From Actinomycetota bacterium (GTDB lineage: Bacteria; Actinomycetota; Acidimicrobiia; Acidimicrobiales; MedAcidi-G1), in the NCBI GenBank assembly GCA_014381945.1, contig JACNKQ010000036.1, forward strand, positions 14,739 through 78,738: a stretch of DNA of 64,000 bases, read 5' to 3'. Under the pieces are notes generated by a model. It made no database searches and was not told where the DNA came from. It saw only the letters and a list, made by a program, of their open reading frames with translations. How positions within the stretch are numbered: position 1 is the first letter of the stretch; every line of letters begins with the position of its first letter. The position numbers and the translations under genes were made by a program. Positions 25,183 through 30,434 of this stretch are shown here, one piece after another.

Positions 25183-26202
25183 ATGCTCTCCCCGATGGAC
25201 TCCCACCACCGGGCCGGCGACCCCGGCCCCTACTTCGACGACCTCTCGGTTGGACAGCTCCTCGACCCCGCCCCCGCCGTCACTATCGACGAGGGCGAGG
25301 CCGCCGTCTACCAGGCCATCTGTGGCGACCCCCTCGCCCTGGCCCTGAGTGCACCGCTGTCCGAGGCCGTGACCGGAACGCCCGGGCGCCTGGCCAACCC
25401 GGCACTCGTCATGCACATCTCGATCGGACAGAGCACGGTCGCCACCCAGCGGGTCGTGGCCAACCTCTTCTACAGGGGCGTGGCACTGAGCCAGGTCGTC
25501 CGGCTCGGCGAGACCCTGCACACCACGGTCGAGGTCCGCGGGCTGCGCGAGACCACCCGTCGCGACGACCGTCCGCCCCGGGGGCTGGCCCTGCTCGGCA
25601 TCCGTACGGTCAGGGTCGACGACGGTGCCCCCGTAGTCGACTACGAGCGCTGCGCCATGCTGCGGTTCCGCGACGAAAACTCCGACACCGGCCACTCCGA
25701 CGACCTGGGCGCCCCATCACCCGAGGTCGACCTGGCCGACTGGACCGACCGGGTGCCGGCGGGCTGGGACCCCTCCCCGCTGGCTGCCGCCGCCGACAGC
25801 AGATGGGCCGTCGGCGAGACCCGTGCCGACCTGCTGCGCGACACCGTGACCGCAGCACCCGAGTTGGCCAGGCTCAGCCAGAACCTTGCGCCCGTGCACC
25901 GCGACGCCGCCGCCAACGAGGGGGGCCGACGGCTCGTCTACGGCGGCCACACCATCGGCCTGGCCCAGGCGTCGCTGGTTCGCCGCATGCCAGGCACCGC
26001 CACTGTGCTGGGCTGGCAGTCCTGCGACCACCCCGCACCCGTGTTCGAGGACGACGTGCTGTCGTGCCGCCACACCCTGCTCGACGAGCAGTCGGTCGCC
26101 GGAGGTCGCCTGCGTGCTGTCCGCACCGAGGTATCCGCCGAACGCGACGGTGGAGACGTCGGCCCGGTCCTCGACTGGCGGCTCGTTACGTGGGGCGCCT
26201 GA
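25183..26202 (+). CDS. MaoC-like (double hot-dog) acyl dehydratase/hydratase
   Basis: About 340 aa from ATG 25183 (alternative 25195). It has an N-terminal hot-dog half (...YFDDLSVGQLL...) and a C-terminal half (...RLVYGGHTIGLAQ...). The start is uncertain. Confidence 0.7.
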   Translation: MLSPMDSHHRAGDPGPYFDDLSVGQLLDPAPAVTIDEGEAAVYQAICGDPLALALSAPLSEAVTGTPGRLANPALVMHISIGQSTVATQRVVANLFYRGVALSQVVRLGETLHTTVEVRGLRETTRRDDRPPRGLALLGIRTVRVDDGAPVVDYERCAMLRFRDENSDTGHSDDLGAPSPEVDLADWTDRVPAGWDPSPLAAAADSRWAVGETRADLLRDTVTAAPELARLSQNLAPVHRDAAANEGGRRLVYGGHTIGLAQASLVRRMPGTATVLGWQSCDHPAPVFEDDVLSCRHTLLDEQSVAGGRLRAVRTEVSAERDGGDVGPVLDWRLVTWGA

Positions 26203-27412
26203 CCCCCTGGGTCGCAACCATGCCGCGGTCGACCAGCGAGCCGATCTCGGCTGCGGCGAGGCCGAGGTCGTCGGCGAGCACCTCTTCGGTGTGCTCGCCC
26301 AGCCGTGGCGCCGTCGCCGCACCCCGACCCTCGGCACCGGCACCGCTGAACGCCAGCGGCGATCCGGGCACCAGGTGGCGCCCCACGCCGGGCTGGTCGA
26401 GGTCGGCGAACAGCGGGTTGGCGGTCGAGCACCGCGGATCCTCGGCAACGAGTTCGAGGAAAGTGCGGTAGGGACCCCAGCACACTCCCTCGGCGTCGAG
26501 GCCGTCGGCCACCTCGGCCAGCGTGCGGGCGGAGAACCACGGGCCGAACAAGTCCCCCAGACGGTCCCTGGCCAGGAAGCGTTCGCCCTCGTCGGCGAAG
26601 TCGACACCGAGTTCGTCGGCCAGCGCCGCCACGGCGTCGGTCGTGCCGGTGGCCGCCTGCAGGCCCCGCCACTGCTTCGGACTGATCGCCACGACCATCA
26701 CCCGGCGGCCGTCGCCGGTCGCAAAGTCGCTGCCGTAGGCGCCGTAGAGGTCGTTGCCGATGGCCTCCCGCTGGGTACCGAGCACCTGGGCCTCGGCCAG
26801 CGAGCCCAACATCCCGACGGTCGCCAGCGCCACGTCGACGAGCGCCAGGGTCACAAGGTCGCCGACGCCCTCGAGGATCCGTCGCCGGTCGGCGGCCAGC
26901 AGGCCCAAGGCGGCCATCTGCCCGCACATCAGGTCCCAGGCCGGCACGACGTTGTTGACGGGCCTGGGGTCGTCGGCGTGGCCGGTGGCCGACGGGTAGC
27001 CCATGGCGCAGTTGACCGTGTAGTCGACGGCGGTCGTGCCATCGTGATTGCCGGTGATTGCCACCATCACGAGGTCGTCGCGTCGTCGGCGCAGCGCCTC
27101 GTACGACAGCCAGCCGACCGCCGGGAAGTTGGTGAGGAAGTTGCCGGACCGGCCGATCAACTCGCCGACCAGGTCCTGTACCTCGGGCTCTCCGAGGTTC
27201 ACGGCCAGCGAGCGCTTGCCCTTGTTGAGCCCGTTCCAGTAGAGGCTGATGCCGTCGGGGGTGAGCGGCCACCTTTGGTGGTCGATGCCACCGCCGATGC
27301 GGTCGAAGCGGATGACGTCGGCCCCCAACTGGGCCAGCGTCATGCCACCCGACGGTGCGGCTACGAAGGCAGAGCCCTCGACGACCGTCAGGCCAGCGAG
27401 AGGTAGCGACAC
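26186..27412 (-). CDS. CaiB/BaiF family (type III) CoA-transferase
   Basis: 408-aa ORF (MSLPLAGLTVVEGSAFVAAPSGGMTLAQLGADVIRFD...). Its 3-prime end overlaps the convergent MaoC-like gene by 17 bp. Confidence 0.85.
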   Translation of the reverse strand: MSLPLAGLTVVEGSAFVAAPSGGMTLAQLGADVIRFDRIGGGIDHQRWPLTPDGISLYWNGLNKGKRSLAVNLGEPEVQDLVGELIGRSGNFLTNFPAVGWLSYEALRRRRDDLVMVAITGNHDGTTAVDYTVNCAMGYPSATGHADDPRPVNNVVPAWDLMCGQMAALGLLAADRRRILEGVGDLVTLALVDVALATVGMLGSLAEAQVLGTQREAIGNDLYGAYGSDFATGDGRRVMVVAISPKQWRGLQAATGTTDAVAALADELGVDFADEGERFLARDRLGDLFGPWFSARTLAEVADGLDAEGVCWGPYRTFLELVAEDPRCSTANPLFADLDQPGVGRHLVPGSPLAFSGAGAEGRGAATAPRLGEHTEEVLADDLGLAAAEIGSLVDRGMVATQGVRRPT

Positions 27413-27417
27413 TCGCC

Positions 27418-27885
27418 CTAGCTCAGTGCAGCGATGTCGGCCAGCAGGTCGGCGGCGTGCTCGTCGAGGGTCGTCGAGGCGTTGAGGTCGTACGACCTGG
27501 CAATTGTGCCGTCGGGGGCGATCAGGTAGCTGATGCGCAACGGGTAGTCGGCCAGGCCATCGTCGGCCGGCCGGGTCGCCTCGTAGGCGGCCCCCATGGT
27601 GCGTTCGGTGTCGGCCAGCAGGGCATATGGGAAGCCCTCGCTTTCGGCGAACGCCTTCTGCTCCTCGACGGTGTCGAAGCTGGCGCCCACTATCACCGCA
27701 TTGGCGGCGCTGAACTCGGGGGCTCGATCACGGAGCCCCCCTCCCTGGATCGTTCAACCGGGGGTGCTGGCCTTGGGGTACCACCACAGGGCCACCCATT
27801 TGCCGGCCATGTCGTCGAGGGTGACGGTGTTGCCGTCCTGGTCGGGAGCCGAGAACGCCGGCGCCGCTGTTCCTGTTTCGAGCAT
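27418..27885 (-). CDS. bcp: Bcp/PrxQ-type peroxiredoxin with in-frame TGA at the peroxidatic Cys position (candidate selenoprotein; alternatively a pseudogene)
   Basis: ATG 27885 has AGGAGAGG 7 nt upstream. The frame reads MLETGTAAPAFSAPDQDGNTVTLDDMAGKWVALWWYPKASTPG-TGA(27756-27754)-TIQGGGLRDRAPEFSAANAV, then continues in frame into track ORF 27418..27696. Total 155 codons, matching Bcp length and motifs. Confidence 0.65.
27718..27740 (-). promoter_or_regulatory. SECIS-like mRNA hairpin downstream of the in-frame UGA
   Basis: mRNA GGGGGCUC-CGUGAUC-GAGCCCCC forms a perfect 8-bp stem with a 7-nt loop. The stem starts 13 nt after the UGA. Confidence 0.5.
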
Positions 27886-27962
27886 CTTTGGGCCTCTCCT
27901 GATCATCGGCCTCTGGTGGCCGTCGTTGCCGACCCTAGTCCCCGGCCCCGCTGGCGGCAGGT

Positions 27963-30434
27963 TCAGTCGTCTTCTGCAGGAACTGGTGCATCAACCGAGA
28001 CCGAGCCTACAGATACGGCATCGTCGGGCTCCGGCGGAACTTCGAGGATCTCCACCTCGCCGTACTCTGGTTCGAGGTCGGCGCAGGTGACGTAGGCGGC
28101 GTCCATGCGATCCTGGAACTCGTCTGTCCAGTCCGCGTTCCACCAGGCGGCGCCCAACTCCGTTTCCATGCACGCGTCGTGTTCCGCCCAGGACTCCTGG
28201 AGTGCGATCTCCTCGAGCAGGTCCGCCTGCCGGTCGGCCGGCGCAAGCTCGAGGCAGCCCTTCAGGGTTTCGAGGTAGCTGGACGAGGGGTCCTGTTCGG
28301 TGTACCACACGTCCATGCACGCGTTGAACGGCTCCATGGCCTTGGTCTCGTCGAGGGCTGCGAGCATCTCGGCCTGCATCTCCTCGGGGGCGAGCGGTAT
28401 GCAGGAGGCCCAGACCTCGTTGTAATACGCAGAGTCCCACTGTCCGCCTGCGATTCCCACGCCCTCCTCCATGCACGACGTGTAGGGCACCATGGGCTCG
28501 GTGAACTCGAGCTCCGCCAGGATCTCGGACCGCGTCTCCCCGGAGAGCACGTCCAGACAGGCCCTTTGGGCAGCGACGTAGTCTGCGGTTCGCCACACGT
28601 CGTCGGGCATCTCCCCGTCGATGCAGTCGTCCCATGCTCCCCATTCCCCGCTGTCGTCCCAGCCGCTGCCGTCACTGTCGATGGATTTCAGGTCGACGGA
28701 ACGCGAACACGCCCCGTAGGCGAAGCCGCCACCCTCCGATGTGGCGTTGACGGGGTCGCCGCAGCCGGAGGCCAGCTGTTCGTCGGAGGAGCCGGGCTCG
28801 GAGTAGTCCCAGAGAATGTCGCAACTGAACATGTCGCCGTCGCTGCAGTCCTCGGCGAGCATGTCCGAGTCGACCGGCGCCAACGCCGAATCGAAGCCCA
28901 CCGATCCGGCGGTGGCACTCTGCGAATAGCCGTCGTCCATCTCCGCATCGCCGCCCATCATCTCCATGGGAGCCATGATGGCCTCGCTCGCCACCAGGGG
29001 GGCGAACAGCATGTCCTCGAGGTCGAGGCCGTCGAAGGCACCCGAGAGGGCTGCATCTAGCACCACGGCCAGGTACTCGACCACTGTCTCGACCGGGCTG
29101 AGGTACCACGAGCCGTCGATGCGACGGGCCACGACGAACAGGCCGTCGACGCCGAGGCCGGGCACGGCGTCCTCGAGGCAGCCCTCGTGCAGGCCCGTCG
29201 AGCGGTCGGGTCCCTGCTCGCCGGGCAGTTCACCCAGGTAGTCGAACACGGCGCAGGTGCCCCGGATCGTCAGCGTGGCATCGGCGCTCGCCCCGCCCGC
29301 ACCCTCGGGAAGGGTCACGGACCCGACCACGTGCAGCACGGCATCGGTCACCACCACCTTGGTGCGCTCGTCGTCGAGCTTCTCCTCCGTGGTTCCGATC
29401 TCGAGCGTGATGTCGAGTGCCGGCTCCATCTCGGTGGCGAGCCCCTCGATCATCTCGGTCATCTCATCGGCATCCATGCCCTCGGTCATCGACTCGTTGA
29501 CCTGGTCGGTAATGCCCTGGAACATCGGCAGGTGGTCGAGGAACACGGCCATCTCGTCGGGTGCGACCGGCAAGGCACCCTGGAGGGGATCCGACGGGTC
29601 GATCGACGGCACCAGCACACCGGTGCGGATCTGGTCCAGGACGGTCTCAATCTGGGCGTCGAGGTCGAAGCCGTTCACCTGGTCGACGACCTGCTGGAGC
29701 ACACCCGAGGCCGTGTCGGTACCGGGCGGCATGTCGACCGAGGAGCCCTCGTAGTCGACCGGGGGCAGGTCGAAGAGCATCCGGGCGTATTCGAAGGTGG
29801 TGTAGAGCGGGCTCACGAACCAGCGGCCGCGCTCGTGGACGACCATCACGAAAAGCTCGGAGGGCGGCCGGACGTCGAGGATGCCGTCCGGCTCGTATGC
29901 GGCGGCCTCGTCGGCAAGCATCTCGTTGATCTCGGCGAGGGTGATCGACTCGTCGACCGGCTCGGCATCGCCACTCAAATTCGCGTCCATGGACGACGGG
30001 TCGACCGTGACGCCGAGATCGCCGTCGACCAGGTACACCTTGTGGACCCGCTCGTGCAGCGCATCTACCCGGATGTCGAGGTCGGCAACCTGGATGTCGA
30101 TGCCGGCAAGAGGATTGTCGCCGGCCAGCCCGCCCTCTTTTTGTGCCAACTCGATCACGCGCCCGTAGAGGTCGACGGCGTGGCCGATCTCGGAGGGCGG
30201 GAGCATGGCTGCGGCGCCCACGACGTCTTCGGCGGCCAGGGCGACGGCCAGCCCGTTGACGGCCTCGGCGGAAGAAGCAGCACCGACCACCGAGCCCTCG
30301 GATGCAGAACGCAGGCTCAGGACAACGGCGACGATGACCGCTGCTGCGATCAGGGCCCCCAGGAGTGTCCAGCGCTTCGAGCCTGAGGCTCCCGTGGTTG
30401 CCTCTACCGGTGTCGGGACTGTCGTTGTTTCCAT
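27963..30434 (-). CDS. hypothetical, very acidic, N-terminally membrane-anchored protein with C-terminal Cys-x27-Cys repeats
   Basis: 823-aa ORF of coherent composition with one N-terminal TM segment (WTLLGALIAAAVIVAVVLSL). It is D/E-rich and carries three C-x27-C-M-[ED] modules in its last 200 aa. I recognise no family. Confidence 0.75.
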   Translation of the reverse strand: METTTVPTPVEATTGASGSKRWTLLGALIAAAVIVAVVLSLRSASEGSVVGAASSAEAVNGLAVALAAEDVVGAAAMLPPSEIGHAVDLYGRVIELAQKEGGLAGDNPLAGIDIQVADLDIRVDALHERVHKVYLVDGDLGVTVDPSSMDANLSGDAEPVDESITLAEINEMLADEAAAYEPDGILDVRPPSELFVMVVHERGRWFVSPLYTTFEYARMLFDLPPVDYEGSSVDMPPGTDTASGVLQQVVDQVNGFDLDAQIETVLDQIRTGVLVPSIDPSDPLQGALPVAPDEMAVFLDHLPMFQGITDQVNESMTEGMDADEMTEMIEGLATEMEPALDITLEIGTTEEKLDDERTKVVVTDAVLHVVGSVTLPEGAGGASADATLTIRGTCAVFDYLGELPGEQGPDRSTGLHEGCLEDAVPGLGVDGLFVVARRIDGSWYLSPVETVVEYLAVVLDAALSGAFDGLDLEDMLFAPLVASEAIMAPMEMMGGDAEMDDGYSQSATAGSVGFDSALAPVDSDMLAEDCSDGDMFSCDILWDYSEPGSSDEQLASGCGDPVNATSEGGGFAYGACSRSVDLKSIDSDGSGWDDSGEWGAWDDCIDGEMPDDVWRTADYVAAQRACLDVLSGETRSEILAELEFTEPMVPYTSCMEEGVGIAGGQWDSAYYNEVWASCIPLAPEEMQAEMLAALDETKAMEPFNACMDVWYTEQDPSSSYLETLKGCLELAPADRQADLLEEIALQESWAEHDACMETELGAAWWNADWTDEFQDRMDAAYVTCADLEPEYGEVEILEVPPEPDDAVSVGSVSVDAPVPAEDD

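Follow-up and report, generated by a model that had tools for sequence, protein, structure and literature searches.

The 64,000-nt stretch of DNA analysed here (the window, whose numbering we use throughout) comes from an Actinomycetota bacterium of the Acidimicrobiales lineage MedAcidi-G1. On its minus strand, which also carries the neighbouring genes, lies prx (27418..27885), a gene for a Bcp/PrxQ-type peroxiredoxin and, as we shall argue, very probably a selenoprotein. Its identification draws on translation, Pfam, solved structures and 80 orthologues. The frame starts at ATG 27885-27883, behind a Shine-Dalgarno-like motif read directly from the sequence (27893..27900, minus strand). It runs as MLETGT...WWYPKASTPG to a TGA at 27756-27754 and then through 111 open codons to a TAG at 27420-27418, which makes 155 codons, 154 of them standard and one putatively read as selenocysteine (Sec), plus the stop. 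A mechanical list of open reading frames (ORFs) contains the end of this frame as a 92-aa ORF at 27418..27696. An original prediction, made from the letters of this DNA, had described the gene in such terms. When the sequence was re-read and translated, AGGAGAGG at 27900-27893, 7 nt 5' of the ATG, the TGA within an otherwise open 155-codon frame and the 92-aa ORF as its continuation were all found as described, and so were the remaining coordinates and sequence statements of that prediction.

The protein was scored with a Cys substituted at the TGA. It matches the Pfam family AhpC-TSA (PF00578) at 6e-31, with 107.4 bits against a cutoff of 26 (residues 5-129, profile positions 2-122 of 124), and Redoxin at 7e-15. 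All 14 solved structures that it matches are of the BCP/PrxQ type. Among the NCBIfam models, Bcp scores highest with 93 bits, followed by PrxQ with 75 bits, while AhpC gets 37 bits. Both results support the subfamily first proposed. The Bcp equivalog NF006960 (thioredoxin-dependent thiol peroxidase) scores 93.1 bits and its cutoff of 140 is not reached. The protein is thus Bcp-like, yet no equivalog of E. coli Bcp.

The TGA occupies codon 44 (27754..27756, minus strand). In the alignment with Xanthomonas BCP/PrxQ structures it falls on the peroxidatic cysteine (C_P), YPKDSTPGCT facing YPKASTPG(TGA)T, and Cys-containing homologues have TGC there; both observations place the TGA at the codon originally claimed for it. 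The surrounding active-site motif is P37-K-A-S-T41-P-G-U44, where U44 is the presumed peroxidatic Sec, together with R117. To follow these residues we scanned for orthologues, taking one genome per species and keeping the 80 best loci; counts out of 81 refer to these and the window. The Thr of PxxxTxxU (codon 41, 27763..27765, minus strand), position 44 and the Arg (codon 117, 27535..27537, minus strand), which aligns with the Arg of BCP structures, are invariant in 81/81, while P37 varies in a few. We read T41, position 44 and R117 as the Thr-C_P-Arg active site of peroxiredoxins. The protein contains no cysteine, as do 65 of the 81. At position +5, where Bcp has its resolving Cys, the window has Gly, as had been noted from the sequence; this extends to most orthologues, Cys (UTIEAC) being present in only 4 of the 81. 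The protein would be best described as a Sec-containing Bcp/PrxQ-like peroxiredoxin, within an orthologue set that seems predominantly 1-Sec.

Nearly all of the 80 loci come from marine, sponge-associated or sediment metagenome-assembled genomes (MAGs) of Acidimicrobiales. The named lineages include MedAcidi-G1, G2B and G3, Sva0996, Ca. Aldehydirespirator and Ca. Poriferisocius, and a few loci come from soil MAGs labelled Mycobacteriales. Identity to the window protein ranges from 52 to 90% and falls to 42% among the orthologues themselves. Across this diversity codon 44 is TGA in 81/81 and never TAA, TAG, TGC or TGT, and the downstream frame stays open to about codon 155 in all 80 orthologues. 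The same TGA is also present in several assemblies of the source organism. Median pairwise dN/dS is 0.26 over codons 1-43 and 0.29 over codons 45-110, hence both halves of the gene are translated and under purifying selection. A Sec peroxiredoxin had been expected to be unusual in a high-GC actinobacterium. This expectation has to be abandoned: all 80 best orthologues carry the TGA, most of them are Acidimicrobiales, and the family has long been known and is abundant in the sea. One TGA-type orthologue (L045:10001-10474) carries a Deltaproteobacteria label, which points to either mis-binning or horizontal transfer.

The TGA is an ordinary stop in 11 of 16 neighbouring genes. The genetic code is therefore standard, and a reassigned code in which TGA means Trp or Gly is ruled out. 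We also screened blindly all in-frame TGA sites with open flanks in the window and the related loci (6,495 sites in about 1.4 Mb). The prx codon forms by far the largest conserved cluster, with 79 loci, and the other conserved clusters of this screen are all off-frame artefacts. No second selenoprotein candidate was found in the window, where a screen based on GC3 gave only gene ends and adjacent genes.

Downstream of the TGA the mRNA can fold into the hairpin GGGGGCUC-CGUGAUC-GAGCCCCC (27718..27740, minus strand), with its 5' arm at 27740-27733, its loop at 27732-27726 and its 3' arm at 27725-27718. The stem begins 13 nt after the UGA and the loop 21 nt after it, and the 23-nt hairpin has a minimum free energy (MFE) of -16.2 kcal/mol. 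According to a 2026 review (PMC13188914), the loop of a bacterial selenocysteine insertion sequence (SECIS) has 3-9 nt, with G as its first or second nucleotide, and the stem has 4-16 bp; 16-37 nt separate the UGA from the loop, and the MFE is at most -7.5 kcal/mol. The window hairpin lies within all these limits (7-nt loop, 8-bp stem, G at loop position 2, 21 nt, -16.2 kcal/mol), and the position and geometry first proposed for it, including G and U in the loop, were correct. Of the 80 orthologues, 71 have a hairpin within these limits in the register of the window, and a further 5 have one in a shifted register. The loop core CGUGA is found in 79/80 orthologues; its conservation extends to the third base of the Arg codon CGU, where a change would be synonymous.

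The evidence for the stem comes from an alignment of 76 distinct sequences of 72 nt, gap-free from the TGA through the hairpin, in which support was scored by explicit pair counting on the named structure. In this stem 83-84% of cells are paired, a share that drops to 52% or less once the 3' side is displaced by 1-3 columns. Of the 8 stem pairs under test, 4 show compensatory changes, for example these three: pair 28-40 is CG in 29 sequences, UG in 23 and UA in 22; pair 27-41 is GC in 64, AU in 6 and CG in 1; pair 24-44 is GC in 55, AU in 4 and UA in 2. Double changes amount to 36 cells where column shuffles give 4.7, and none of 500 shuffles reaches the observed value, so the proposed hairpin bears the mark of covariation. 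The predicted length of the stem stands in part. All 8 bp are perfect in the window sequence, but 63 of the 76 sequences do not form the outermost pair, which leaves the inner 7 bp as the conserved core. An outer helix, UGAAC/GUUCA, was considered as well; it is 86% paired with zero double changes, and we do not claim it.

The five orthologues with a shifted register (L049, L072, L073, L075 and L076) come from soil MAGs labelled Mycobacteriales or Acidimicrobiia. Three of them (L072, L075, L076) have a 7-bp stem around a 5-nt CGUGA loop, e.g. GGCGCUG-CGUGA-CAGUGCC, and the shifted stems of L049 (loop CGGGA) and L073 are interrupted. In these soil orthologues the loop appears to have stayed fixed while the arms moved.

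Pair 28-40 (window positions 27735/27723) also couples two residues of the protein. Sequences with CUC (Leu50) have GCC (Ala55), and those with UUC (Phe50) have ACC (Thr55) or, by wobble, GCC. The SECIS hence shapes the protein sequence, residue 50 (Leu/Phe) covarying with residue 55 (Ala/Thr) through this pair.

Homologues in which codon 44 is TGC serve as controls, and there are three of them (P0002, P0005 and P0008). Of the 7 core pairs they keep only between 3 and 6, most of them weak, and their MFE folds show no hairpin at the SECIS position. The Arg codon of the loop region is CGC in 3/3 Cys forms and CGU in the Sec forms. P0002 is 72% identical to Sec forms, which nests it inside the diversity of the Sec clade. 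Close relatives with TGC thus lack the hairpin and orthologues with TGA carry it: on these three Cys genes, the hairpin is kept only where the UGA is kept. P0005 and P0008 (L089:3001-3477 and L090:2360-2836) lie beside gpsA and a CofC-family gene rather than a CoA-transferase or aldehyde dehydrogenase gene; P0002 lies on a 1.7-kb contig (L091).

Conservation of the codon, covariation of the stem and the Cys-homologue controls together argue strongly that prx encodes a Bcp-type peroxiredoxin whose UGA is decoded as Sec by means of a functional SECIS, which we hold to be very probable. The original assignment of the UGA to Sec at the peroxidatic position, with a bacterial SECIS downstream, is thereby strongly supported. 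In such a system UGA codon 44 would escape reading as a stop during translation, and the hairpin with its CGUGA apical loop would act as the SECIS. SelB-GTP carrying Sec-tRNA(Sec) would bind this loop and deliver Sec as the UGA enters the A site. In the finished enzyme, the U44 selenolate would attack the peroxide to give a selenenic acid. A thiol reductant from outside the protein, of the thioredoxin or mycoredoxin type, would then regenerate the enzyme directly, in place of an internal resolving Cys; the lack of any cysteine in the window protein is what points to such a "1-Sec" enzyme. We infer Sec insertion, the binding of SelB, the reductant and the presence of selA, selB, selC and selD in the source genome.

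Several results weigh against this reading. The first concern the decoding machinery. Searches by tblastn with E. coli SelA, SelB and SelD found no selA, selB or selD in the window and 86 related loci, and ARAGORN found no tRNA-Sec in them, nor any tRNA gene. Bin134, a sponge MAG about 90% complete, has one SelD and neither SelA nor SelB in its COG counts (PMC5649159, Table S4). This is the source MAG of L035 (MPNQ01000016.1), which has a TGA-type prx with a fully paired SECIS stem. Others concern the hairpin. In the window sequence alone, the fold of the 66-nt region is no better than that of dinucleotide shuffles (z = -0.44), as is expected at about 70% GC, and the significance of the hairpin comes from the comparative data only. 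RNAalifold, run on the 76-sequence alignment, did not recover the stem and returned a weak, unrelated 4-pair helix instead. Among the orthologues that keep the TGA, L045 has no stem in the usual register and L052 (5783-6256) has a weak and interrupted one, other positions having been searched in neither; L011 and L035 keep all 7 pairs with an MFE just above the limit of -7.5 kcal/mol. Finally, three genes make a small set of Cys controls. A scan of the window at the Rfam gathering threshold gave no match, but as Rfam has no usable bacterial SECIS model, this result counts neither for nor against the hairpin.

The literature on Sec machinery in Acidimicrobiia offers indirect and mixed support. 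All 84 complete genomes of Actinomarina, from the sister order Actinomarinales in the same class, contain selA, selB, selC and selD (bioRxiv 10.64898/2026.04.03.716425), and the sponge Acidimicrobiia bin76 has SelA, SelB and SelD (PMC5649159, Table S4). The gap in bin134 could reflect the 90% completeness of the bin, divergent genes or something more interesting. In a search for plasmid SelA, Tsukamurella was the sole actinobacterial match among the matches listed. In one locus (L060:5108-5209, minus strand) ARAGORN also reported a "tRNA-Trp (cca)" of 102 nt, which would lie some 200 nt upstream of prx. It is a probable false positive: Rfam finds no tRNA there and gives one 12-bit sRNA match with E = 0.98.

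Some of these points bear on the best surviving alternative, which is that the UGA is recoded to a residue other than Sec. This might be Cys, inserted by a SelB-dependent tRNA-Sec-like tRNA, or Trp or Cys, inserted by near-cognate read-through at a low level. Conservation and hairpin prove recoding and not the identity of the inserted residue. The lack of Sec machinery in the window and the loci searched, and of annotated SelA and SelB in bin134, would fit such recoding too. In its favour also, tRNA-Sec-like tRNAs carrying other amino acids are said, in parts of the literature, to exist. Yet plain TGC would be a simpler way to encode Cys, and it does occur in nested homologues, where the hairpin is lost; nor would that route need the SelD of bin134. 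Trp or Gly at position 44 would abolish catalysis, whereas T41 and R117 are invariant. Besides, prx matches an established family of Sec peroxiredoxins with the motif TxxU (PMC2398784). We therefore regard non-Sec recoding as improbable.

Less likely still is a split gene, in which a 43-aa N-terminal peptide and a restarted C-terminal protein of 92-111 aa would assemble into a thioredoxin-fold protein without selenium. Downstream GTG and ATG codons do exist and are used by gene callers. Yet the predicted restarts differ among orthologues (92, 98, 110 or 111 aa) and we see no conserved ribosome-binding site or start. Between the TGA and the restarts, the codons are conserved as protein, T45, R52 and D53 being invariant or nearly so, and the product would be devoid of the catalytic residue. 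A split gene would also tolerate TAA or TAG, yet the stop is always TGA. As for a nonsense pseudogene or an assembly or sequencing error with a coincidental hairpin, which the lack of significance of the hairpin in a single sequence and the two short ORFs given by gene callers might suggest, it is effectively refuted by the identical TGA in 81 independent genomes and several assemblies of the source organism, the dN/dS of about 0.3 past the stop, the invariant catalytic residues and the compensatory changes in the stem, as the original prediction had anticipated in holding a pseudogene unlikely. Neither of these last two explanations can yield the observed pattern of TGA conservation, dN/dS and a cluster of 79 loci.

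The Sec-decoding peroxiredoxin that we favour has well-known relatives. Prx with TxxU is an established bacterial selenoprotein family, listed among the validated ones under the motif PxxxTxxU (PMC13188914). A survey of 5,200 genomes recorded it in 78 organisms (PMC5029168), and 34 samples of the Global Ocean Sampling (GOS) yielded 253 sequences of it (PMC2398784). It is among the most abundant families in the selenoproteomes of the Sargasso Sea (PMC1088965) and of GOS (PMC2398784). The family is defined by a UGA that stands in frame where Cys homologues have their redox Cys (PMC2398784, PMC1794560, PMC13188914), and the Sargasso set was filed under COG1225 (PMC1088965). In the window prx, the UGA is likewise aligned with the redox Cys of homologues and coding conservation extends on both sides of it. 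We take COG1225 to be the Bcp-type COG, i.e. the same subfamily as the window protein.

The closest known system is the marine Prx (TxxU) of the Sargasso and GOS surveys (Zhang, Fomenko and Gladyshev 2005; Zhang and Gladyshev 2008). Both share PF00578, TxxU (here T41-P-G-U44), a marine origin, abundant Cys homologues and a SECIS immediately past the UGA. Those studies worked on short anonymous reads without lineage, whereas here the gene is placed in Acidimicrobiales and related Actinomycetota. The strict retention of TGA, the covariation of the hairpin and the largely Cys-free, 1-Sec character are also added here. That the window prx and the GOS set are the same family we infer from the agreement of motif, domain, COG and habitat.

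Other systems are more distant. PrxU (NF040737), which has been characterised experimentally and is counted as validated (PMC13188914), shares the peroxidatic Sec, PxxxTxxU and a UGA with a SECIS downstream. It belongs to another Prx subfamily: with this model, whose cutoff is 270 bits, the window protein reaches 36.5 bits, and the profile has 233 positions against 155 aa here. The Cys-type BCP/PrxQ enzymes (E. coli Bcp, NF006960; X. campestris 5iiz and 3gkk) share the fold, the length, YPK-x-STPG-(C/U)-T and the Arg, but have the peroxidatic Cys where the window has the presumed Sec and the +5 resolving Cys where it has Gly. Of Sec-containing peroxiredoxins, we know of none of the Bcp/PrxQ type that has been characterised biochemically, only of PrxU. 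The hairpin resembles the consensus bacterial SECIS (bSECISearch model, as given in PMC13188914) in its 8-bp upper stem (7 conserved), 7-nt loop with G at position 2 and then U, and 21-nt spacing; there is no essential difference, apart from the shifted stem of the five soil-derived orthologues. Hence, the window prx adds a new member, with its lineage assigned, to a selenoprotein family that was described two decades ago (metagenomes of 2005-2008), and represents neither a new mechanism nor a new kind of element. The interest lies in the comparative set, 81 orthologues with a covarying SECIS and nested Cys forms with a decayed one, for a family known mainly from anonymous reads. It also points to a Cys-free Sec peroxiredoxin that would depend on an external reductant.

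One might go further and speculate that these genes form an obligately selenium-dependent, Cys-free "1-Sec" Bcp clade, kept as Sec across aerobic marine and sponge-associated Acidimicrobiales (81/81 species representatives). This seems to us possible, if on balance rather doubtful. If it were true, Sec would not be simply interchangeable with Cys in these Acidimicrobiales, and prx may be among the selenoproteins for whose sake these aerobes retain the Sec trait.

The practical significance of the finding lies in a recurrent annotation error. Public relatives of prx, as returned by a protein search, are often 92, 98, 110 or 111 aa long and start just past codon 44. Two full-length ones print Trp at the Sec position ("PGWT"), others "PGCT"; the Trp is probably due to a code-4 gene call on the TGA. 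In P0001, P0004, P0003, P0007 and the called genes of L081-L086, the gene is split into 43 aa and 92 or 110 aa, labelled "hypothetical protein" or given a Trp. Through such mis-annotation, abundant Acidimicrobiales of the sea and of sponges are credited with less antioxidant capacity and less selenium dependence than they have.

The gene that follows prx encodes a type III CoA-transferase (26186..27412, minus strand; Pfam CoA_transf_3). Its GTG start lies 5 bp past the prx stop, the distance that had been predicted. In about 24 loci with homology to it immediately past prx, this homology reaches residues 1-4 of the 408-aa ORF from GTG 27412. Public calls start the gene at an internal ATG, 75 nt past prx, for a product of 385 aa; with homology reaching so far, this start is probably too short. 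The two genes are probably co-transcribed. A promoter and terminator scan, which included the gap between them, gave no sites and is uninformative for actinobacteria. The adjacency with the CoA-transferase gene holds in these 24 or so loci; more distant clades have an aldehyde dehydrogenase gene upstream of prx instead.

On the other side, a gene at 27963-30434 on the same minus strand ends 78 nt before the prx ATG and encodes 775-823 aa with no Pfam match. It is conserved only in the closest relatives, with 11 tblastn sources: the window, five contigs of the same organism (L081-L086) and L001-L005 (45-67% identity). On a larger scale, the GC skew of the window is negative from 4 to 36 kb and positive from 36 to 60 kb, with its cumulative minimum at about 36 kb; this switch may correspond to a change in gene orientation or to a replication landmark.

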